DNA of 64,000 nt from an uncultured Solirubrobacteraceae bacterium (GTDB lineage: Bacteria > Actinomycetota > Thermoleophilia > Solirubrobacterales > Solirubrobacteraceae): assembly GCA_963838405.1 (NCBI GenBank), contig CAWIRA010000005.1, positions 83,071 through 147,070 on the forward strand, in the 5' to 3' direction. Shown here one piece after another: positions 7,637 to 19,905 of the stretch; position 1 is the stretch's first letter, and each line of letters starts with the position of its first letter. The translations under genes and the position numbers were made by a program. Under the pieces are notes generated by a model, which ran no database searches, had not been told where the DNA came from, and saw only the letters and a list, made by a program, of their open reading frames with translations.

Positions 7637-8302
7637 ATGAAACGAATATCTCTTGCCCTGATCGTCACCGCCGCGTTCGCGCTGGCGCTGCCGGCCCTCG
7701 CGCCCGCGACGCTCACCGAAGTCGGCGTCATCGGTGAAACCACGCCCGCGACCGCGCCGAGTTGTCCTGGCACCCCGTGTCTGGCGGTCAGCCGCACAAC
7801 AGGCTTTCAGGTCAAGGTCGCCACCGCCAACAATCTCGTCAGCGCACCGCGCGAAGGCACGATCGTCGCCTGGACGATCACGCTCGGCAACCCGAACCCC
7901 ACCCAGATCAAGTACTTCAACGCCAACGAGGGCGGCCCCTCCGAAGCCGGGATCGCGATCCTCGCTCCTCAGAGGAAGCCAAACCTGACCTACAAGCTGA
8001 TCGCCCAGAGCCCGCTGGTCAAACTGCAGCCGTACTTCGGCAAGACCGCGCAGTTCCCGCTCGAAACAACGATCCCGGTCAAGAAGGGCTACATCGTCGC
8101 GCTGACCGTGCCCTCGTGGGCGCCGGCGCTAGCACTCGGATTCGGCGAAAACACGTCGTGGCGCGCCAGCCGCCCCAAGGCCGGCTGCAAGAGCACCAGC
8201 TCCCAAACGACACAGACCGCGATCGGCAGCGCCGTCCAGTACTACTGCCTCTACCAGACCGCCCGCCTCACCTACAGCGCAACGCTGATCTCCACGCCGT
8301 AG
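7637..8302 (+). CDS. Secreted hypothetical protein
   Basis: Signal peptide MKRISLALIVTAAFALALPALAPA; strongly GC3-biased codons; four Cys. Confidence 0.75.
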   Translation: MKRISLALIVTAAFALALPALAPATLTEVGVIGETTPATAPSCPGTPCLAVSRTTGFQVKVATANNLVSAPREGTIVAWTITLGNPNPTQIKYFNANEGGPSEAGIAILAPQRKPNLTYKLIAQSPLVKLQPYFGKTAQFPLETTIPVKKGYIVALTVPSWAPALALGFGENTSWRASRPKAGCKSTSSQTTQTAIGSAVQYYCLYQTARLTYSATLISTP

Positions 8303-8324
8303 CTGCCTAGCTGTTTGCAGATGC

Positions 8325-8429
8325 CCTAGGCGTTCGCTGGGCAAGCAAGGCAAGGACGCAGGGAGCGCCGCGTGCTGCGCACGCAAGCGACTGAGGACGC
8401 AGCATTGCGCCGCCCAGCGGGCGCCTAGG
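8325..8429 (+). repeat. Structured dispersed element, copy A (~105 nt, long terminal stem)
   Basis: CCTAGGCGTTCGCTGGGC...GCCCAGCGGGCGCCTAGG terminal stem; core homologous to the reverse complement of 16766-16870. Confidence 0.8.
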
Positions 8430-8823
8430 GGGCGCTGGCGCCGCCGGTGGGGCTGGCCGGCGCCGTAGGTTCGCTGGCTTTGGATTCGGCTTCGCTCGAG
8501 GCCGGTTTTTCTGCAGCGGCGGCGCCGCCGGAGCTGCCTTCGGTGCTGGGTGCGCTCCCACCGGAGGATGATTCGCTGTTTTCGCTCGCGGGCGTTTCTC
8601 CGGAGGAGGTCGTGCTTTCGGTCGTCTTGGTGCTCTTGGTCGAGGTCGTGCCGGTCGAGGTCGTCTGCGCGGCGGCCGCCGCTTCGGCGCTCGTGTCCGT
8701 CGGCGGCGTCAGTTCAGGGGTGCTTTTGGGCACCGCGTCGGAGACGCTGGTGCCGCCGCACGCGGCCAACGCCAACCCACAGAGCAGCGCTGCGCATGCG
8801 GCGAGCGCTACGCGGGTCCTCAC
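8425..8823 (-). CDS. Ser/Thr/Ala-rich low-complexity lipoprotein
   Basis: GTG start overlapping upstream TGA; lipobox LAAC-GG; disordered S/T/E-rich body. Confidence 0.7.
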   Translation of the reverse strand: MRTRVALAACAALLCGLALAACGGTSVSDAVPKSTPELTPPTDTSAEAAAAAQTTSTGTTSTKSTKTTESTTSSGETPASENSESSSGGSAPSTEGSSGGAAAAEKPASSEAESKASEPTAPASPTGGASAP

Positions 8824-9080
8824 AGCGGTCCCATACGCCTGCCGCAGGTGGGGCACTCGTTGAGGTCCTTCTGCGAGTGCTGGTCGCACCACGGGCAGAA
8901 GCGCATGTTCTCCACCGCCCACGGCAGCCGCGAGCGCGACGGCGCCAGCGGCAGCACCTTGCCCACGATCTCGAGCGGCTCGCCCGACTCGCGGTCCAGG
9001 TAGATCTCCTCCGGCTCGGCCTCGATCAGCACTTCGCGGCCTGCGGAGCTTCGTAGTCGATAACGCTGTCTAGTGCTCAC
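8820..9080 (-). CDS. Small zinc-ribbon protein
   Basis: CPWC...CPTC; -10 TAAAGT 7 nt before GTG. Confidence 0.7.
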   Translation of the reverse strand: MSTRQRYRLRSSAGREVLIEAEPEEIYLDRESGEPLEIVGKVLPLAPSRSRLPWAVENMRFCPWCDQHSQKDLNECPTCGRRMGPL

Positions 9081-9127
9081 GGCCGCAACTTTACCGGAGC
9101 GTGTGGGCGTGGATAGGCTGCGCGTGC

Positions 9128-10747
9128 GTGCGCGTGCTGATCTTCCACGGTTACCTGCTCGAGGGGACCGGCTCGAACGTCTACAACGCCCAGCTCGCGA
9201 CGGCGCTGGTGGGCCTCGGGCACGAGGTGCACCTGCTCAGTCAGGACCGCCACTCCGAGCGCCAGCCGTTCGTCGACGCGGTGGCCGACTGGGATGACGG
9301 GACGCTGCGCCTGCGTGAGCTCGAGCGTCCGCTGCGGGCGCACGATCAGCCCCGGCGCGGCCGCTGTGTCGTCTACCGTCCCGACATCGGCGACCTGCTG
9401 CCCGTGTACGTGGCCGACCGCTACGAGGGCGTCCAAGCGCGCATCTTCGCGCGCTGCAGCGACGCGGAGCTCGCGCGCTATCTCGACGCGAACGTCGCTG
9501 CGGTTACCGACGTAGTCGCGCTCGCCGCTCCGCAGCTGGCGCTCGCCAACCACCTGATCATGGGCCCGGCGATCCTCGCCCGGGCGCTGCCCCAGACGGT
9601 CCCGTATGCGGTCAAGGTTCACGGCAGCGCGCTCGAGTACACCGTCAAGCCGGAACCGGAGCGCTTCCTGAGGTTCGCCAGTGAGGGGCTGGCGCGCGCC
9701 CGCGCGGTGCTCGTCGGCTCGCGCCACACTGCGCTCAGCCTGTGGCGCACGCTCCCGGACCCGGAGCTGCCGCGCCGCACGCGGCTGGGACCCCCGGGCG
9801 TCGACGTCACGCGCTTTGCGCCGCGCGAGCCCGCGCGTGCCGCGGCTGGCGTACGCGAGCTCGCCGCGCGGCTGCGCACCGGCGCGGCGGAGGCGCTCGC
9901 GGGAGGCGAGGGCGAGGGCGAGCAGCCGGCCGACGCGGGAGCGTTCGGGCGTGATCTGCCCGGCGCCGCTCGCGCCGTCTCGCGGCTCGATCCCGAGCGC
10001 GATGCGCTGGTGGCGTTCGTGGGCAAGCTGATCGTCAGCAAGGGCATCGATCTGCTCGTCGCGGCGTGGCCACTGGTGCTTGAGGCGACGCCACAAGCGC
10101 GCTTGGTCGTCGTCGGCTTCGGCGCCTACCAGGACGGCATCGAACGCCTTTGCGCCGCCCTCGTCACGGGCGATCTCGAGCGGGCACGCGAGCTGGCGCA
10201 CGCGGGCCGGGCGCTCGAGGATGCCTCGCGGCCTGAGCAGCCGCTGCATCATCTGCTCGCGTTCCTCGACAGCCTGCAGGGCAGCGAGCGCGATCGCTAC
10301 CTGGGTGCCGCTCGTCAGCTCGAGCAGCGCCTGGTGCTGACGGGCAGACTCGAGCACGAGGAGCTCGCCGATCTGCTCCCCGCCTGCGCCGCGGTCGTCG
10401 TGCCGAGCACGTTCCCGGAGGCTTTCGGGATGGTCGCCGCCGAGGCGGCGGCGTGCGGCGCGATGCCGATCAGCGCGGCGCACTCCGGGCTGGCCGAGGT
10501 CAGCATGGTGCTGGCGCGCGCGATCCCCGAGGAGGCGGCCGCGTGGCTGTCGTTCACCATCGATGACGACGCCGTGCGGGCGCTTGCCGCGGCGATCAGC
10601 GGCTGGCTGTCGGCGGCCGCGGAGCTACGCGCATGGACACGCGCGGGGCTCGTCGCGACGGTGCGCAAGCGCTGGTCGTGGGAGGGCGTCGCACGCGGCG
10701 TGATCGCAGCCGCGAGCGGCGATCTGGACACACTCGCGGAGCCGTGA
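9128..10747 (+). CDS. Glycosyltransferase family 4 (GT-B)
   Basis: MRVLIFHGYLLEGTGSNVY, FVGKLIVSKG, PSTFPEAFGMVAAEAAACG; start refined by -10 TAGGCT. Confidence 0.88.
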   Translation: MRVLIFHGYLLEGTGSNVYNAQLATALVGLGHEVHLLSQDRHSERQPFVDAVADWDDGTLRLRELERPLRAHDQPRRGRCVVYRPDIGDLLPVYVADRYEGVQARIFARCSDAELARYLDANVAAVTDVVALAAPQLALANHLIMGPAILARALPQTVPYAVKVHGSALEYTVKPEPERFLRFASEGLARARAVLVGSRHTALSLWRTLPDPELPRRTRLGPPGVDVTRFAPREPARAAAGVRELAARLRTGAAEALAGGEGEGEQPADAGAFGRDLPGAARAVSRLDPERDALVAFVGKLIVSKGIDLLVAAWPLVLEATPQARLVVVGFGAYQDGIERLCAALVTGDLERARELAHAGRALEDASRPEQPLHHLLAFLDSLQGSERDRYLGAARQLEQRLVLTGRLEHEELADLLPACAAVVVPSTFPEAFGMVAAEAAACGAMPISAAHSGLAEVSMVLARAIPEEAAAWLSFTIDDDAVRALAAAISGWLSAAAELRAWTRAGLVATVRKRWSWEGVARGVIAAASGDLDTLAEP

Positions 10748-10811
10748 GCGCCGGCTTGGGGTGACGGCCAAAATGTTGCCCGCGCGCCGCCGGGTCGGAT
10801 AGGGTTTCGCC

Positions 10812-11600
10812 GTGCGCTTCCCGCGAGCAAGCAGCCGTGCACCAGGCGACGGACCGTATGCGCGGCGCGCGGTTAGCCGCACCGCTGGCGCGGCGCTGCT
10901 GGTAGTGCTCGCGCTCGGCACTACGGGCTGTGCAGTCAAGGGTGAGGACAACGCGAACCTGATCGTCGGCAAGCAGGCGTTCGTCGCCAAGTGCGGCTCG
11001 TGTCACGCGCTCGCCCACGCCGACACCAAGGGCATCGTCGGTCCCGATCTCGACGAAGTCTTCCGCACGAGCATCGCCGAAGGCCTGCAGCGAAACGCTG
11101 TGCGCACGGTCGTCGAAGGCCAGGTCCAGAACCCCAACCCCGACGGGGTGATGCCGAAAGACCTCGCCAGCGGCTCCACGCTGACGGACATCGCCGCCTA
11201 CGTCGCCCAGGTGGCCGCCAAGCCCGGCGCCGACACGGGCCTGCTGGCGAGCGCGGTCGAAGCGCCCGGGGCGGGCAAGCCCGCGGTCGAGAAGGCGGGC
11301 AAGCTGGACATCGACGCCAACCCCGCCGGCGAGCTGGCGTACACGACCACCAAGGCCGAAGCGCAGCCGGGCGCCGTCACGATCGAAATGGCGAACATGT
11401 CGGGCGTCTCGCACAACATCGCCGTGGAACCCGGCGAAAATGGCGCCACGCAGAAGACCGCGGCGATCGGCGCCAGCTCATTCATCACGAAGGGCACGAC
11501 GTCCGTGACCGTCAACCTGAAACCGGGCAAGTACACGTTCTTCTGCGAGGCTCCCGGCCACCGCGCCGCGGGGATGTACGGCACGCTCACCGTGAAGTAG
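10812..11600 (+). CDS. Cytochrome c - cupredoxin (type 1 copper) fusion lipoprotein
   Basis: Lipobox TTGC, CGSCH heme motif with distal GVMP, then HNI and CEAPGHRAAGM copper ligands. Confidence 0.88.
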   Translation: MRFPRASSRAPGDGPYARRAVSRTAGAALLVVLALGTTGCAVKGEDNANLIVGKQAFVAKCGSCHALAHADTKGIVGPDLDEVFRTSIAEGLQRNAVRTVVEGQVQNPNPDGVMPKDLASGSTLTDIAAYVAQVAAKPGADTGLLASAVEAPGAGKPAVEKAGKLDIDANPAGELAYTTTKAEAQPGAVTIEMANMSGVSHNIAVEPGENGATQKTAAIGASSFITKGTTSVTVNLKPGKYTFFCEAPGHRAAGMYGTLTVK

Positions 11601-11614
11601 CCGGCGTCGCGGCG

Positions 11615-11749
11615 CTAGAGGATCACGCGCACGATCACGGCGAGTACGGCGATCACCACGAACACCGCGATCGCGTACAGCAGCAGCCGGAACGCCTCGG
11701 CCTCAGAGCGCAACGGGTTCAGCTTCAGCGATCGAGGATCGAACCTCAC
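11615..11749 (-). CDS. 44-aa single-TM protein at end of oxidase operon
   Basis: MRFDPRSLKLNPLRSEAEAFRLLLYAIAVFVVIAVLAVIVRVIL; starts 16 nt after ctaE stop. Confidence 0.65.
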   Translation of the reverse strand: MRFDPRSLKLNPLRSEAEAFRLLLYAIAVFVVIAVLAVIVRVIL

Positions 11750-11765
11750 GCCGTGTCCACTGCGG

Positions 11766-12404
11766 TCAAAGAACGTAGACGGTCGTAAAGACGACGATCC
11801 ACATGATGTCGACGAAGTGCCAGTAGATGCCCGGCACCTCGACGCCACGGTGTGACTCGGGGCTGTAGTGGCCGCGGAAGGCGCGCACCGTCACGCTCAA
11901 CAGGATCAGCAGGCCGATGAACACGTGCGCGCCGTGTAGGCCTGTGAGCGAGTAGAAGACCGTCTGCTGCGCGTGGTCCTGCGGCGCGAAGCCAAGGTTC
12001 GCGTACTCGTTGATCTGGATGAACAGAAACGTGCAGCCGAGCAGGAACGTTGTCAGCATCCCGGCCTTGAAGCCGAAGCGGTTGCCGCGCTTGATCGATG
12101 CCTCAGCCCAATGCAGCGTAAACGATGAGGACACAAGGATCAGCGTGTTCACGAGCGCGACAGGTACCGGCAGGTGCATGCCGGGTGCGGGCCACGGTTC
12201 GCCTTCGGCGATGCGGATGAAGAAGTAGGCGGTGAAGAACGCCCCGAAGATCATCACCTCGGAGATGATGAAAAGCATCATTCCCAGCAGCGGCGCGTCG
12301 ACCCGCGAGCTGTGGTTCGCAGGGGGCGGCCCGTGGTGCTCGCCCGTGTCCCCGTGGGCGTGGCCGGCGCCGCCTGCCGGGTGGGAGATGCTGGCTGCCT
12401 CCAT
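11766..12404 (-). CDS. ctaE: Cytochrome c oxidase subunit III (short form)
   Basis: FIISEVMIFGAFF, NTLILVSSS, TGLHGAHV, YWHFVDIMW; ATG at 12404. Confidence 0.95.
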   Translation of the reverse strand: MEAASISHPAGGAGHAHGDTGEHHGPPPANHSSRVDAPLLGMMLFIISEVMIFGAFFTAYFFIRIAEGEPWPAPGMHLPVPVALVNTLILVSSSFTLHWAEASIKRGNRFGFKAGMLTTFLLGCTFLFIQINEYANLGFAPQDHAQQTVFYSLTGLHGAHVFIGLLILLSVTVRAFRGHYSPESHRGVEVPGIYWHFVDIMWIVVFTTVYVL

Positions 12405-12414
12405 GCTCGGCCTG

Positions 12415-13257
12415 CTATCCGGCCTGCGACGCGACGGTCGCGGCCTGTGTGTCGACGACGACGTGTTCAACCGGCACCGGCGTTGCGCCGCGCACGCGCT
12501 CGATCAGGTTGGAACGCATCCAGCCCGAGCGCTCTCCCGGCAGCGTCGAGATGACCACATCGTCGACGTGGAAAAGCTCGAGCGCGTTGATCGTCGCCGT
12601 GTACGGATCCGGGTCGCCGATCATGCCCGAGCTCAACAGCCCGGCGGCGTGCAGCCGGTCGAGCATGCTCGCCAGGCGTTCGCGCGCCTCGCGCGGCGCG
12701 CCGCCGCTGCCATCGAGCTGGGGCACGACGGCGATGAACAGCCGCGCGTCGGCTTCGCCCGCCTTCGCGAGCAGGTGCGCGATCAGCTCCTCGCCGCTGG
12801 AGGTCTTGTGCGCGACCACCAGCGTGACCTTCACCGACAGCCCTTCCTGGTCGATGTCGGCCACGATGTGCTCGACCGGCAGCGCCGTGGCGTTCCGGAC
12901 CCGCTCGATCAGATCCCGTCGCAGCCATCCCGAGTGCTGCATCGGATAGGTCGAGAGGATGATCTCGTCGGGCCGGTGCTGGGCGACGGCGTCCATCGTC
13001 GCCATGAACGCGTCGGAGTCGCCGACCTCGCCGCTCGCCTCGATGCCTTCCGCCGCGACCGCCGACAGCGCCAGATCGACGCGCACCTGCGCAGATTCAC
13101 GGACCGCCTCGTCGTAGATGACGAGACCCGCGGACGGGTTCGTCTGGGGCACGACCAGCCTGAAGCGGACGTCGCCCGACGCAGCACGCTCGCGCACGGC
13201 CTCGCGCAGCTTCTCGCCACCGAGCGTACGGTTGGCGATCACAAGAACTTCCTTCAT
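12415..13257 (-). CDS. Two-repeat USP-like (adenine nucleotide alpha-hydrolase fold) protein
   Basis: Internal duplication VLVIANRTLGG...FRLVVP...GDSD...EIILST.P..SGWLR vs TLVVAHKTSSG...FIAVVP...GDPD...DVVISTLP..SGWMR; the USP fold call is inference. Confidence 0.6.
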   Translation of the reverse strand: MKEVLVIANRTLGGEKLREAVRERAASGDVRFRLVVPQTNPSAGLVIYDEAVRESAQVRVDLALSAVAAEGIEASGEVGDSDAFMATMDAVAQHRPDEIILSTYPMQHSGWLRRDLIERVRNATALPVEHIVADIDQEGLSVKVTLVVAHKTSSGEELIAHLLAKAGEADARLFIAVVPQLDGSGGAPREARERLASMLDRLHAAGLLSSGMIGDPDPYTATINALELFHVDDVVISTLPGERSGWMRSNLIERVRGATPVPVEHVVVDTQAATVASQAG

Positions 13258-13273: not shown

Positions 13274-15178
13274 TCATTGGCTTGGTGCGTGCGCGACGCC
13301 GGTCCCCGCTCCCACCGGGGTTGGCGCCGGTCCGAGGATGCCGTGGACAGCGCCCGGAACGCCGTACTCGTACGGCCCGCCCACGACCGTCGGAACGCGG
13401 TCGAAGTTGAAGATCGGCGGTGGCGAGGAGACCTGCCACTCGAGCGTCATGCTGCGCCAGGGGTTGTCGCCCGCGATCGGGCCGCCGCGCCAGCTAGTGA
13501 CGATGTTGTAGAGGAAGATCAGCATGCTCAGGCCCAGGCCGAAGCTCGCGATCGAGATGAACAGGTTGAGGTCGGCGAACTTCGCTGCGTAGGTGGCAAC
13601 GCGCCGCGGCATGCCCTGCAGGCCGAGGACGTGCATCGGGCCGAAGGTCAGGTTCATGAGGATGAACGTCGTCCAGAAATGCCACTTGCCGAGACGCTCG
13701 TCATACATGCGTCCGGTCATCTTCGGGAACCAGTAATACACGCCAGCGAAGATCGTCATCAGCGAGCCGCCGAACAGCACATAGTGAATATGGGCGACGA
13801 TGAAATAGGTGGAGCTGACGTCGATGTCGAACGGCACCATCGCCAGCATGATCCCGCTGATCCCGCCAAGCGTGAAGGTGGTGATGAAACCAAGCGCGAA
13901 CAGCATCGGTGTGTCGAGGTGAAGCACCCCTCGCCACAGCGTCGCCAGCCACGAGAACACCTTGATGCCGGTTGGCACCGCGATGATCGCGGTCGTGATC
14001 GACATCGGGATGCGGATCCACGCAGCCATGCCGGAGGTGAACATGTGGTGCGCCCACACCGTGAAGCCGAGCCCGACGATCGCCAGCAGCGAGAAAGCCA
14101 TCATGCGGTAGCCAAAGATCGGCTTGCGGGCCTTCACGGCGATGACTTCGCTGATGATCCCGAAGCCGGGCAAGATCATGATGTACACCGCCGGGTGTGA
14201 GTAGAACCAGAAGATGTGTTGGTACATCAGCACGTTGCCGCCCGCCGCTGCGTTGAAGAAGTTAAAGCCGAGCGCCCGGTCGAGCAGCACCATGAACTGC
14301 GACGCGGCGATGAACGGCGTGGCGATCACAACCAGCAGCGATGTCGCGAAGTTCGCCCACACCAGCAGCGGCATCCGGAAGAAGCTCATGCCCGGTGCGC
14401 GCATCGTGATGATCGTGACCAGGAAGTTGAGCGCGGTCATGATCGAGGAGGCGCCTGCGAACTGCACGCCGATCGAGAAGAAGTCCTGCCCGATCGGCGA
14501 GTTGGTTGACAGCGGCGCGTACGCCGTCCAGCCGTCCGCGAACGCCCCGCCGGGCGCCAGGAAGCTGAGCAGCATGATCGTTCCGGCCACGGGCAGCAGC
14601 CAGAACGACAGCGCGTTCAGGCGCGGGAACGCCATGTCCGGGGCGCCGATCATCAGCGGGATCACGAAGTTGCCGAAGCCGGCGAACACCGGCACCATGA
14701 ACAGGAAGATCAAGATCGTCGCGTGGACCGAGAACAGGCCGTTGAACGTGTTGGCGCTGACGAAGTGCGACCCCGGCTGCGCCAGCTGCGCCCGCATCAG
14801 CATCGCCAGCAGCCCGCCGATCAGCAGGAAGATGAACGAGTTCACCAGGTACTGCACGCCGATCACCTTGTGGTCGGTGTTGATGCGGAAGTAGTCCTTC
14901 CACGTGCGCGCGCCGTGACCGGAGTGATCCTCGGGGCGGGTAGGACGGCCCGTGGCCCAGTAGAACCAGTAGTCGAAGCCGCCGATGCCGACGAGGAACG
15001 CCAGCGGCACCGCGAGCAGCGCCACCGTCAGGATCGCTTCGCCCTTGATGAAGTGCGTGAAGGTCGTGTGTCCGGTGGACATCCGCACGACCCACGTCAG
15101 CAGCACCGAAAAGCCGACGGCGGCGACCATCAGCCAGGCGGCGCGATAGAAGCCCGGGCCTCGGAGCTTCGCTGCCAT
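13274..15178 (-). CDS. ctaD: Cytochrome c oxidase subunit I, A2-type
   Basis: TDHKVIG, WFYSHPAVY (YS motif), WAHHMF, PTGIK, AHIHYV, GMPRR. Confidence 0.97.
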   Translation of the reverse strand: MAAKLRGPGFYRAAWLMVAAVGFSVLLTWVVRMSTGHTTFTHFIKGEAILTVALLAVPLAFLVGIGGFDYWFYWATGRPTRPEDHSGHGARTWKDYFRINTDHKVIGVQYLVNSFIFLLIGGLLAMLMRAQLAQPGSHFVSANTFNGLFSVHATILIFLFMVPVFAGFGNFVIPLMIGAPDMAFPRLNALSFWLLPVAGTIMLLSFLAPGGAFADGWTAYAPLSTNSPIGQDFFSIGVQFAGASSIMTALNFLVTIITMRAPGMSFFRMPLLVWANFATSLLVVIATPFIAASQFMVLLDRALGFNFFNAAAGGNVLMYQHIFWFYSHPAVYIMILPGFGIISEVIAVKARKPIFGYRMMAFSLLAIVGLGFTVWAHHMFTSGMAAWIRIPMSITTAIIAVPTGIKVFSWLATLWRGVLHLDTPMLFALGFITTFTLGGISGIMLAMVPFDIDVSSTYFIVAHIHYVLFGGSLMTIFAGVYYWFPKMTGRMYDERLGKWHFWTTFILMNLTFGPMHVLGLQGMPRRVATYAAKFADLNLFISIASFGLGLSMLIFLYNIVTSWRGGPIAGDNPWRSMTLEWQVSSPPPIFNFDRVPTVVGGPYEYGVPGAVHGILGPAPTPVGAGTGVAHAPSQ

Positions 15179-16909: not shown

Positions 16910-17137
16910 CTAGCGGTGGTCTAGCGGGAGTTCGTTGACTTCGCGGCGCGTGTCTTTGATCCAGAGTGCGATGCAGACGACCGTCAGGATCCCGCCGATG
17001 ACGGTGAACTCGATGAACGTGGTGACGCCGACCAGCGTGAGCGTAATACCCACGGCGGTCAGCAGCGGCAGGATGCTTGGCCCGGGAAGGTGGATCTCCT
17101 CGCCGACGGGCGGCACGTCAGGATCGACGGGGCTCAT
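16910..17137 (-). CDS. 75-aa two-TM protein, cytochrome c oxidase subunit IV (CtaF-like)
   Basis: GEEIHLPGPSILPLL...WIKD pattern; ATGA-coupled at the end of the ctaC-ctaD-ctaB operon. Confidence 0.7.
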   Translation of the reverse strand: MSPVDPDVPPVGEEIHLPGPSILPLLTAVGITLTLVGVTTFIEFTVIGGILTVVCIALWIKDTRREVNELPLDHR

Positions 17138-17247
17138 GAGATGTACGCGGCGGCGACGACGAACGTCAGGCCGAACATGAACATGCAGATCGCGGCCACG
17201 ATCAGCCCGGTGATGATGTTCTTGCGTGCGAGGCGGCGGGTCATCAT
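17134..17247 (-). CDS. 37-aa single-TM protein downstream of ctaB
   Basis: MMTRRLARKNIITGLIVAAICMFMFGLTFVVAAAYIS; ATGA overlap with next gene; below ORF-track cutoff. Confidence 0.65.
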   Translation of the reverse strand: MMTRRLARKNIITGLIVAAICMFMFGLTFVVAAAYIS

Positions 17248-18201: not shown

Positions 18202-19905
18202 CTACAGGCCGACCTGCGTCGCTCCCGCCGGGACCGTGGCCGTCCCCGGCGCGCGTGCGCCGCCGCTCGCTCGCTCGATCTCGCGGCGGATGTCCTTCAT
18301 CGGCTCAAACGAGCGCACCAACGGCACTACGTCGAAGTTGTTGACCGGCGGCGGCGACGCCGTGAACCACTCGAGCGTGTTCGCCTTCCACGGGTCCGGG
18401 CCGGCGATCACGCCGACCTTGAGACTGCGCCAGACGTTGATGACGGTCACGCCGACCCCAGCGGCGAGGATGAACGAGCCGACCGTCGAGATCAGGTTGT
18501 ACAGGTGCAGGTGACCCACGTTCGGGTACTCGTACACGCGCCGCGGCATCCCGTCAAGTCCGATCACGTGCTGAATCAGGAACGTGACGATGATCCCGAT
18601 GAATATCAACCAGAAGCTCAGCTTGCCGAGGCCTTCTCCGAGCATGCGTCCGGTGATCTTCGGGAACCAGTAGTAGATCGCGGCGAAGATCGGCAGCACC
18701 GCGCCGCCGACCAGCACGAAGTGGATGTGCGCGACCACGAAGTACGTTTCGTTGAGCTGCCAGTCGACGGGGAAGATCGCGAGGAAGACCCCCGAGATGC
18801 CGCCGATCAGGAACACGGCGATGAACCCCGCGCAGAACAGCAGCGGCGTCTTGAATTCGATCGTGCCGCGCCACAGCGTCGCGATCCAGTTGAGCATCTT
18901 CACGCCCGTCGGCACCGCGATCAGGAACGAGCTGAGCATCACGAACACGAGGATCGCCTCCGGTATCGGCGCCGTGAACATGTGGTGCGCCCACGTCAGG
19001 AAGCCGAGGAAGGCGATCGCCACGGTCGACGCCGCGATCGCCTTGTAGCCGAAGATCGGCTTGCGCGCGAACACCGGCAGGATCTCCGAGACGATGCCGA
19101 AGCCCGGCAGCACCATGATGTAGACCTCCGGGTGCCCGAAGAACCAGAACAGGTTCTGCCACAAAAGCGGCGAGCCGCCGAGGGCGGGGTCGAACCAGTG
19201 GGTGCCGAAGTGGCGGTCGGTGAGCAGCATCGTCACCGCTGCCGCGATCACCGGCAGCGCGAAGATCAGCAGCACCGAGTACGTCAACATCGCCCACACG
19301 AACAGCGGCAGCCGGCCCCAGCTCATGCCGCGCGCGCGCATGTTGGCGACGGTCGCGTAGAAGTTGATCGCCCCGACCAGCGATGAGATGCCGGTGAGGT
19401 GGATCAGGTAGATCCAAGCGTCCTGCCCGCCGGACGGCGAGTACAGGGTGCTGGAGAGGGGGGGATAGCTCGTCCAGCCCGCTTCCGGCGGGTGCCAGAA
19501 GATCGACGCGTAGAAGACGATGCCGCCGGCGAGCAGCAGCCAGAAGGACAGCGCGTTCAGCCGCGGGAACGCCATGTCGCGCGCGCCAATCATCAGCGGC
19601 AGGAAGTAGTTGGCGATCCCCGCCATCATCGGCACGACGAACAGGAAGATCATCGTCGTGCCGTGCATCGTGAACAGCTGGTTGTAGATTTCCGGCGTCA
19701 CCAGCGTGTTGTTCGGGGCGCCCAGCTGCAGGCGGATCATCAGCGCCTCGACGCCGCCGAGGATGAAGAACACGAACGTCAGGACCATGTACATGATCCC
19801 GATGCGCTTGTGGTCGGTGGTCGTGATCCAGCTCGTCCAGCCGCTCGCCTCGCGCTCGGCGCGATGGGCGGTTATCTCTGGGATGGGGGCTACGTAGGTG
19901 GCCAT
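18202..19905 (-). CDS. ctaD: Cytochrome c oxidase subunit I, A1-type
   Basis: TDHKRIG, TMHGT, WFFGHPEVY, WAHHMF, PTGVK, AHIHFV, GMPRR. Confidence 0.97.
   Translation of the reverse strand: MATYVAPIPEITAHRAEREASGWTSWITTTDHKRIGIMYMVLTFVFFILGGVEALMIRLQLGAPNNTLVTPEIYNQLFTMHGTTMIFLFVVPMMAGIANYFLPLMIGARDMAFPRLNALSFWLLLAGGIVFYASIFWHPPEAGWTSYPPLSSTLYSPSGGQDAWIYLIHLTGISSLVGAINFYATVANMRARGMSWGRLPLFVWAMLTYSVLLIFALPVIAAAVTMLLTDRHFGTHWFDPALGGSPLLWQNLFWFFGHPEVYIMVLPGFGIVSEILPVFARKPIFGYKAIAASTVAIAFLGFLTWAHHMFTAPIPEAILVFVMLSSFLIAVPTGVKMLNWIATLWRGTIEFKTPLLFCAGFIAVFLIGGISGVFLAIFPVDWQLNETYFVVAHIHFVLVGGAVLPIFAAIYYWFPKITGRMLGEGLGKLSFWLIFIGIIVTFLIQHVIGLDGMPRRVYEYPNVGHLHLYNLISTVGSFILAAGVGVTVINVWRSLKVGVIAGPDPWKANTLEWFTASPPPVNNFDVVPLVRSFEPMKDIRREIERASGGARAPGTATVPAGATQVGL

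Follow-up and report, generated by a model that had tools for sequence, protein, structure and literature searches.

A predicted lipid-anchored cytochrome c-cupredoxin carrier with an exchangeable second module, encoded beside the A2-type oxidase operon in Thermoleophilia

We analysed a 64,000-nucleotide stretch of contig CAWIRA010000005.1 (positions 83,071 to 147,070 of the forward strand, further referred to as the window) from an uncultured Solirubrobacteraceae bacterium of the class Thermoleophilia (assembly GCA_963838405.1). The gene at 10812..11600 on the plus strand encodes a predicted lipoprotein, further called the carrier, in which a class I cytochrome c domain is followed by a type 1 copper cupredoxin domain. 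The gene faces an operon for an A2-type aa3 oxidase. We conclude that the carrier is probably a lipid-anchored extracytoplasmic two-centre electron carrier serving this adjacent oxidase. The main interest of the protein lies in its copper module, which is exchangeable and is swapped for a second heme c domain in sister proteins. A sequence-only reading of the same stretch had missed the exchange; its interpretation of the gene is supported by the analysis. The gene and its product comprise the following features.

10812..11600, plus strand: carrier gene, lipoprotein cytochrome c-cupredoxin fusion, 262 amino acids (aa) plus stop (open reading frame, PF00034, PF00127, AlphaFold2 model)
10812..10931, plus strand: signal peptide with lipobox LGTTG-C40, Cys40 codon at 10929-10931
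10932..11216, plus strand: class I cytochrome c domain, residues 41-135, CXXCH at 10992-11006, Met114 at 11151-11153
11217..11303, plus strand: linker, residues 136-164, motif PGxDTGxLA, breakpoint of module exchange
11304..11597, plus strand: type 1 copper cupredoxin domain, residues 165-262, PF00127, invariant ligands, auracyanin fold
11412-11414 (His201), 11544-11546 (Cys245), 11559-11561 (His250) and 11574-11576 (Met255), plus strand: codons of the cupredoxin ligands

The sequence-only reading had proposed that one membrane-tethered polypeptide carries both a c-type heme and a type 1 copper site, quoting the motifs CGSCH, GVMP, HNI and CEAPGHRAAGM, and had suggested profile searches for both domains. 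All four motifs are present, both profiles score above their cut-offs (PF00034 marginally), and together with the invariant ligands and the lipobox they bear out the proposal at the level of predicted binding. PF00127 (Copper-bind) covers residues 172-262 with 48.9 bits (cut-off 21.2). PF00034 covers residues 53-134 with 21.9 bits (cut-off 21.3), which is marginal for a single sequence. This marginal score is backed by the family profile and by the predicted fold: with a profile built from 14 relatives, the solved cytochrome SorU (4pw9_B) is matched at an E-value of 8.4e-12, and the fold of the cytochrome domain agrees with the same structure (Z-score 10.8, root-mean-square deviation (rmsd) 1.7 Å over 78 residues, 36% identity).

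The heme motif CGSCH comprises C61, C64 and H65, and GVMP contains M114, which from its position in the sequence would be the distal sixth ligand of the heme; M114 is invariant and P115 nearly so. The copper motifs are HNI (H201) and CEAPGHRAAGM (C245, H250, M255), with the spacing C-x4-H-x4-M. Ligand conservation was assessed in 38 aligned two-domain relatives with identity down to 35%. All eight ligands, four of the heme and four of the copper, are invariant in 38 of 38. From these sequence features the carrier is predicted to bind both heme c and copper.

The AlphaFold2 (AF2) model of the carrier has a mean predicted local distance difference test score (pLDDT) of 86.3 and a predicted template modelling score of 0.75. 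Beta strands are predicted from residue 161 onward, with pLDDT of 84-98 per 10-residue block. The best fold match of the cupredoxin domain is auracyanin B (1ov8_A; Z-score 13.6, rmsd 2.2 Å over 101 residues, 33% identity), and the auracyanins 6kol and 2aan are matched as well (Foldseek template modelling score 0.70 for auracyanins). Other fold matches include azurin (Z-score 12.1), rusticyanin (11.7), CupA (4f2e_A, 10.0) and AcoP (7z3b_A, 8.4). With the 14-relative profile, the cupredoxin domain of NirK (6tfd_A) is matched at an E-value of 3e-14. In the linker, G139 and L145 are nearly invariant among the 38 relatives, and G143 is likewise in the 14-row set. Since pLDDT amounts to 91-94 across residues 131-160, linker included, the two domains are predicted in a fixed arrangement. 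The structure search returned no solved chain aligning to both domains together, which is not proof that none exists.

Close homologues are named in databases merely as 'c-type cytochrome' or 'plastocyanin'. Their source organisms, as named there, put the window in Solirubrobacterales. The carrier is not a member of NF045774 (c551 family; 20.5 bits, cut-off 118) and scores below the cut-offs of TIGR02656 (plastocyanin proper; 41.1 bits, cut-off 87.85) and TIGR03095 (rusticyanin; 19.3 bits, cut-off 146.7). By sequence, the copper domain is assigned to the plastocyanin/azurin superfamily only, and not to plastocyanin proper or rusticyanin.

The reading frame at 10812-11600 (plus strand; GTG start, 262 codons) is present as the sequence-only reading had given it, and GTG 10812 is the single in-frame start located 5' of the hydrophobic leader. 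The GC content at codon positions (0.88 at the third, 0.53 at the second) follows the pattern of a genuine gene in a window of 70% GC. A chance frame is excluded, since 2941 of 8000 scored candidates match the carrier at E<=0.001; the 120 matches listed are 72-98% identical and 227-288 aa long. Among 1.84 billion representatives clustered at 50% identity, 2640 matches were found (56 at E<=1e-30). Four metatranscriptome libraries contain contigs that match parts of the cox operon exactly, as well as 10620-10804, immediately 5' of the gene; no contig from them covers 10896-11606, although contigs cannot show absence. Consensus scans of 10500-12000 for promoters and terminators found none.

The leader ends in ...LLVVLALGTTG-C40 and fits what we take to be the PROSITE lipobox pattern. 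Cys40 is kept in at least 90% of the 38 relatives, and a hydrophobic leader ending in Cys is found in 20 of 20 related open reading frames. Residues with pLDDT below 50 are confined to the leader, where residues 1-39 are low, as is normal for a leader. The host genome assembly (3.79 Mb in 6 contigs, 93.5% complete) contains three matches to Lgt, the lipoprotein-processing enzyme (PF01790, best 183 bits). The carrier is accordingly predicted from its sequence to be lipid-anchored and extracytoplasmic. The RR pair in the leader was considered as a twin-arginine export signal and rejected, given that it is not kept in the alignment.

For comparison of gene neighbourhoods we used 20 loci, taking the best match to the carrier profile per genome with 11-20 kb of sequence, some of them ended by contig edges; the oxidase was ignored in the choice. 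The heme-copper architecture is found at 10 loci, a diheme one at 6 and a monoheme one at 4. The monoheme forms, which have no second module, are encoded within the operon in four loci. When the N-terminal cytochrome domains were placed in a maximum-likelihood tree (37 rows), proteins of the same architecture were not grouped together. Counting only well-supported branches, the copper state must have changed at least 4 times and the diheme state at least 3 times. Two genomes belonging to one genus provide a sister pair (support 100/99) made up of a copper protein, L051, and a diheme protein, L056. The diheme protein P0131 is sister to the branch formed by the carrier of the window and P0121 (support 99/91). 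Blocks of 20 alignment columns in both sister pairs contain 11-15 identical columns as far as the cytochrome domain reaches; the block with the linker motif PGxDxGxLA has 9, and blocks beyond it have 0-6. Because identity of the sisters collapses right after the linker motif, the breakpoint of the exchange was placed in the linker.

These comparisons indicate that the cupredoxin and the second cytochrome c domain replaced each other repeatedly on an otherwise orthologous protein. Given that the module is exchangeable, we argue that copper and heme do the same job in its C-terminal position. The N-terminal cytochrome c domain appears from the alignments to be the constant part of the family. 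Since it is constant and suffices alone in the monoheme lineages, it may be regarded as the partner that the oxidase cannot do without, and the second module as an extension.

An A2-type coxA gene (product 58-81% identical to that of the window) with coxB and coxC is present at all 20 loci. In 5 loci the carrier gene comes after the final operon gene and shares its strand; in 15 it is convergent with the operon. The last operon gene before the carrier is coxC, but in L065 a gene for a universal-stress-protein-like (USP-like) protein stands after coxC. Distances were measured in 69 other genomes for which the matches listed include the cytochrome domain together with a CoxA sharing at least 59% identity. 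The two genes lie within 10 kb on one contig in 64 of them, with the largest gap of 7.7 kb; in the other five they are 20.7, 25.3 and 477 kb apart (three genomes) or on different contigs (two genomes), again among the matches listed. The sequence-only reading had stated that a lack of co-occurrence with the oxidases in related genomes would speak against it. The 20 of 20 loci, and the 64 of 69 genomes counted among the matches listed, point in the opposite direction.

Of 151 genomes sampled evenly across the class, 76 match the two-domain profile at E<=1e-10, and 13, the host included, have both domains in one frame. Ten of the 13 belong to the family f1 (the host and 9 of 12 others), and single genomes to f3, f4 and f5. 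The carrier family is present in all sampled genomes of f1 (12/12), f2 (11/11), f3 (1/1), f4 (1/1), f5 (26/26), f10 (1/1) and f11 (1/1) and in 22 of 23 genomes of f7. A2-type CoxA is present in these same eight families. No carrier was found in f6 (0/25), f8 (0/25) and f9 (0/24), where CoxA is either absent or 41-50% identical among the matches listed, that is, at the level of the A1 type. The two f1 genomes whose only CoxA is A1-like (G083 with 49% and G113 with 46%) likewise gave no strong match to the cytochrome domain. Across 251 genomes sampled from the whole phylum and searched at E<=1e-25, matches were found in 14 of 19 members of the class and in none of the 232 genomes outside it. Atlas proteins with cytochrome c and cupredoxin domains from Acidobacteriota, Chloroflexota and Pseudomonadota score under 0.9. 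We consider the counts for the carrier and the A2-type oxidase as a stable association and not as statistical proof.

The operon that faces the carrier has the gene order coxB-coxA-USP-like-coxC, so that coxC, its last gene, is the one convergent with the carrier, as the sequence-only reading had described.

11766..12470, minus strand: coxC, subunit III of the A2-type oxidase (PF00510, 139 bits), convergent with the carrier
12415..13257, minus strand: tandem USP-like gene of the A2 operon, 280 aa, no Pfam or NCBIfam match
13274..15178, minus strand: coxA, subunit I, A2 type (YSHPAV), PF00115 with 520 bits from residue 106, TIGR02891 with 682 bits
15279..16043, minus strand: coxB, subunit II, the proposed electron acceptor, PF00116 and PF02790, with the CuA motif and no CXXCH

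A second CoxA, encoded at 18202-19905, carries GHPEV instead of the YSHPAV of the A2 operon; by the motif definitions as we take them, these mark the A1 and the A2 type, respectively. Both subunits II of the window contain the motif C-x3-C-x3-H-x2-M of the dinuclear copper centre CuA and no CXXCH, and Pfam yields only COX2 and COX2_TM. Hence the statement of the sequence-only reading that neither subunit II has a cytochrome c domain holds, and the C-terminal c domain that defines caa3-type enzymes is found in neither CoxB. The CuA residues of CoxB from the A2 operon (H174, C209, C213, H217, M220) are invariant in 18 orthologues. As a side observation, CoxB residues 209-217 read C-N-L-L-C-G here versus C-(A/T)-E-L-C-G in 17 orthologues; thus the nearly invariant Glu211 beside the CuA cysteines is replaced by Leu.

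A single cytochrome b locus was found in the host genome. Its products are a Rieske protein, an N-terminal half of 267 aa resembling cytochrome b6, and a 244-aa fusion of the cytochrome b C-terminal/subunit IV domain with a monoheme cytochrome c.

Contig C4 222000-240000, at 8005-10294 of that stretch, minus strand: complex III genes (Rieske, cytochrome b6, subunit IV-monoheme c)

By its sequences, this complex III has the Bacillus-type b6c arrangement and not the mycobacterial diheme QcrC arrangement. Neither a diheme QcrC nor an NrfD-family protein, the marker of the membrane subunit of alternative complex III (ACIII), was found in the host genome at its 93.5% completeness. The sequence-only reading had set the system apart from the bcc-aa3 supercomplex and had advised a search for qcrABC or ACIII; the Bacillus-like b6c complex agrees with that view. 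The carrier itself lacks the marks of QcrC, having one heme motif and lying away from the qcr locus. Since complex III ends in one heme c and the oxidases, which have no c domain, begin at CuA, electrons need a separate carrier to pass between them. Three other anchored class I cytochromes c with a single CXXCH each are encoded in the genome: one beside glnA and an ABC transporter, one divergent from nuoA-D and one near an Rrf2 regulator. Two cytochrome c assembly proteins (PF01578) were found in the genome, and ResB (PF05140) was not. Next to the complex III genes are genes for a UbiE-type methyltransferase and a polyprenyl synthase (menaquinone-related), and upstream of them are heme biosynthesis genes (ALAD and a siroheme-decarboxylase-like gene).

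In the probable role stated above, the b6c complex would oxidise menaquinol, and electrons would pass from the cytochrome c at the end of subunit IV to the lipoprotein carrier. Within the carrier, transfer between heme and copper would take place across the fixed domain interface, and the carrier would then reduce the CuA centre in subunit II, a protein that lacks a cytochrome c domain. The C-terminal module may also collect electrons from other cupredoxin-bearing enzymes. We infer the loading with cofactors, the partners, and the direction and order of transfer from these predicted features.

Complex prediction for CoxB residues 114-240 and carrier residues 41-262 gave a score of 0.00 twice and weighs neither way. 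Net charge provides no docking signal either: the values for the cytochrome domain, the linker, the cupredoxin domain and the soluble domain of CoxB scatter around zero across relatives. Several observations weigh against the proposed role. The PF00034 score of the single sequence is just 0.6 bits above the cut-off. In the host and its family the carrier gene is convergent with the operon and not within it. The three other anchored monoheme cytochromes c and several cupredoxins of the genome could carry the electrons instead, and the A1-type oxidase 6 kb off could be the real or an additional acceptor. The counts for the carrier and CoxA come from among the matches listed, with 180 and 25 further matches beyond. 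Moreover, relatives cannot be counted as independent genomes, which makes the support from co-distribution look greater than it is.

Four other explanations were weighed. We consider it unlikely, if worth serious attention, that the carrier is a stably bound accessory subunit of the A2-type oxidase, a detached lipid-anchored caa3 c domain similar to AcoP, and no diffusing shuttle. Such a subunit would fit the tight and old synteny, including the position within the operon in 5 of 20 loci, the lipid anchor holding the protein at the membrane, and the ordered linker with the fixed domain arrangement predicted by AF2; AcoP, according to the passages of PMC5982212 that concern it, copurifies with the oxidase of Acidithiobacillus ferrooxidans. 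However, the stable interface that this explanation predicts has no support, and in most lineages the gene has changed its orientation or place with respect to the operon (it is up to 25 kb and 477 kb off in three genomes), which is easier for a loose carrier. A bound subunit would also overlap with the role proposed here, since both feed CuA.

It is rather improbable that the main task of the carrier is to admit electrons that come from extracytoplasmic dehydrogenases and bypass complex III, in the manner of rusticyanin and cytochrome c4 in A. ferrooxidans. The variable C-terminal module is what would be expected of an adaptor to changing donors, and possible donors and partners exist in the genome: a lipoprotein of the pyrroloquinoline quinone (PQQ) type with a C-terminal cupredoxin of the carrier subfamily, a stand-alone lipoprotein cupredoxin and a membrane-anchored tandem cupredoxin. 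Yet the carrier tracks the oxidase and no dehydrogenase, the operon-encoded monoheme forms of four loci have no second module, and with a subunit II that lacks a c domain, the monoheme c at the end of the b6c complex must still hand its electrons to some acceptor. Neither role excludes the other.

We regard it as very improbable that the carrier is a copper chaperone or a CuA assembly factor and no electron carrier. Periplasmic copper proteins encoded beside cox operons are often assembly factors, and the copper chaperone CupA (4f2e_A, Z-score 10.0) is among the fold matches. But the full His-Cys-His-Met set of a type 1 site is invariant, electron-transfer cupredoxins match better (auracyanin 13.6, azurin 12.1, rusticyanin 11.7), and in sister proteins the cupredoxin is swapped for a cytochrome c domain or missing, which fits redox function and not copper delivery. 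Donation to another terminal reductase, e.g. a copper nitrite reductase, is hardly credible: although the best solved sequence matches are the N-terminal cupredoxin of Hyphomicrobium denitrificans NirK (6tfd/2dv6) and the C-terminal cytochrome c of NirK 3ziy, the gene is syntenic with the oxidase, and the host genome yielded no NirK, TIGR02376 reaching just 19 bits there, on a cupredoxin.

As a carrier for the A2-type oxidase, the protein may be compared with several described systems. In Bacillus, the lipoprotein cytochrome c551 CccB and cytochrome c550 CccA work with the b6c-type QcrABC and a caa3 oxidase. The likeness includes a monoderm-type chain, a split b6 and subunit IV-monoheme c, and a small lipid-anchored class I cytochrome c; here, in contrast, subunit II has no fused c domain, the carrier is tied to the oxidase operon, and a second redox domain is present. 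In the bcc-aa3 supercomplex of Mycobacterium and Corynebacterium, a diheme QcrC bridges complex III and the CuA of a subunit II with no c domain. This is a two-centre wire to CuA in the same phylum, and the diheme sisters of the carrier resemble a detached QcrC. However, the carrier is located outside complex III, which has its own monoheme c, and it does not have the QcrC architecture with a transmembrane anchor. In function the carrier resembles the anchored cytochromes c of Bacillus, a detached caa3 c domain and the QcrC wire; the defining features of the last two are absent.

Auracyanins of Chloroflexus and Roseiflexus (1ov8, 2aan, 6kol) are membrane-tethered blue copper carriers and the best structural match of the copper domain. 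They are single-domain proteins acting with ACIII, whereas here a cytochrome c domain stands in front and no ACIII marker was found in the genome. The nearest described system of heme and cupredoxin around an aa3 oxidase is the rus operon of A. ferrooxidans (PMC5982212), which encodes a diheme cytochrome c4, the cupredoxins AcoP and rusticyanin, and an aa3 oxidase. According to the same paper, AcoP is membrane-anchored, associates with the oxidase and is reduced by cytochrome c4. In both cases the genes of an aa3-type oxidase are accompanied by a c-type cytochrome and a cupredoxin, between which electrons pass before they reach the oxidase, as described in that source and as predicted here. 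In the rus operon the two are separate proteins of an acidophilic iron oxidiser, whereas here they form one lipoprotein of a neutral-soil actinobacterium with no link to iron oxidation. NirK enzymes with tethered donor domains (6tfd, 2dv6, 3ziy) are the closest solved sequence relatives of both carrier domains. In the four-domain heme-cupredoxin NirK of Bradyrhizobium sp. ORS 375 (6the), heme c and cupredoxin are described in passages of PMC7775769 as a built-in wire. There the donor domains are fused to the enzyme, whereas the tandem considered here is free, lipid-anchored and linked to an oxidase in a genome where no NirK was found. In the text of PMC8239418 covered by a term search, Thermoleophilia is not mentioned. 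A search of open-access papers and bioRxiv found no description of a free-standing cytochrome c-cupredoxin lipoprotein or of respiration in Thermoleophilia.

Several further observations concern the proteins around the carrier. The 280-aa USP-like protein has an internal duplication and is encoded in 19 of 20 related loci; its Atlas neighbours belong to the Usp family (0.97-0.98). It would be a cytoplasmic tandem USP-like protein with a fixed place in an oxidase operon. Ahead of its COX1 domain the A2-type CoxA is extended N-terminally by about 100 aa, and in family f5 its open frame is about 920-950 aa long, which suggests fusion with a downstream gene. Upstream of the carrier on the same strand is a gene for a GT4 glycosyltransferase (9101-10747, plus strand), found in 9 of 20 carrier loci. 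An 86-aa zinc-ribbon-like protein (8820-9080, minus strand) is encoded in 13 of the 20. Both genes recur on either side, wherever the operon sits. In the A1 cluster, downstream of ctaB, a hydrophobic 76-aa open reading frame with no Pfam match (16910-17140, minus strand) might encode a small oxidase subunit. The remaining scanned parts of the window contain housekeeping genes.

Cupredoxins of the carrier subfamily were also found elsewhere in the host genome. A PQQ-type beta-propeller dehydrogenase with a lipobox (contig C6 454240-456270, plus strand; PF01011 with 133 bits) has a C-terminal cupredoxin of this subfamily (PF00127 with 34.6 bits) and looks like a copper counterpart of quinohemoprotein dehydrogenases. 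Two more are encoded at contig C2 57999-59066 (plus strand) and contig C6 23423-24112 (minus strand): one is membrane-anchored with two nearly identical repeats, and the other is a stand-alone lipoprotein with a Ser/Thr-rich tether. Among metagenome representatives, P0140 (569 aa) combines a Ser/Thr kinase domain, a long linker, one transmembrane helix and a cytochrome c-cupredoxin tandem very close to that of the carrier. This may represent a kinase that senses redox state, or else a gene-calling artefact.

To our knowledge, the route of electrons to CuA in actinobacteria has been described only for the bcc-aa3 supercomplex of mycobacteria and corynebacteria, and we know of no characterisation of respiration in Thermoleophilia, which are abundant soil bacteria. 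We regard the interest of the system as moderate to good, given the module exchange and the outline of an uncharacterised respiratory design in a common soil lineage. Thermoleophilia appear to reach CuA in a different way, with a Bacillus-like b6c complex, a subunit II with no c domain and an operon-linked lipoprotein carrier. A broader proposal, which we consider possible rather than probable, is that of a modular lipid-anchored carrier dedicated to the A2-type oxidase of Thermoleophilia, consisting of a cytochrome c socket with a copper module, a second heme module or none, exchangeable even within one genus. The heme-copper form would then be a free-standing wire replacing the caa3 c domain and the diheme QcrC, and the exchange would be a domain-level version of the plastocyanin/cytochrome c6 switch, fixed by metal supply. 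The heme-copper form also offers a small natural soluble two-centre protein for measurements of transfer from heme to type 1 copper, with the diheme and monoheme sisters as controls. Repeated exchange of copper and heme modules on one scaffold makes the economy of copper versus iron in respiration testable, and the presence of the carrier-type cupredoxin on a PQQ dehydrogenase and a Ser/Thr kinase hints at a wider copper-based extracytoplasmic redox network in the class.

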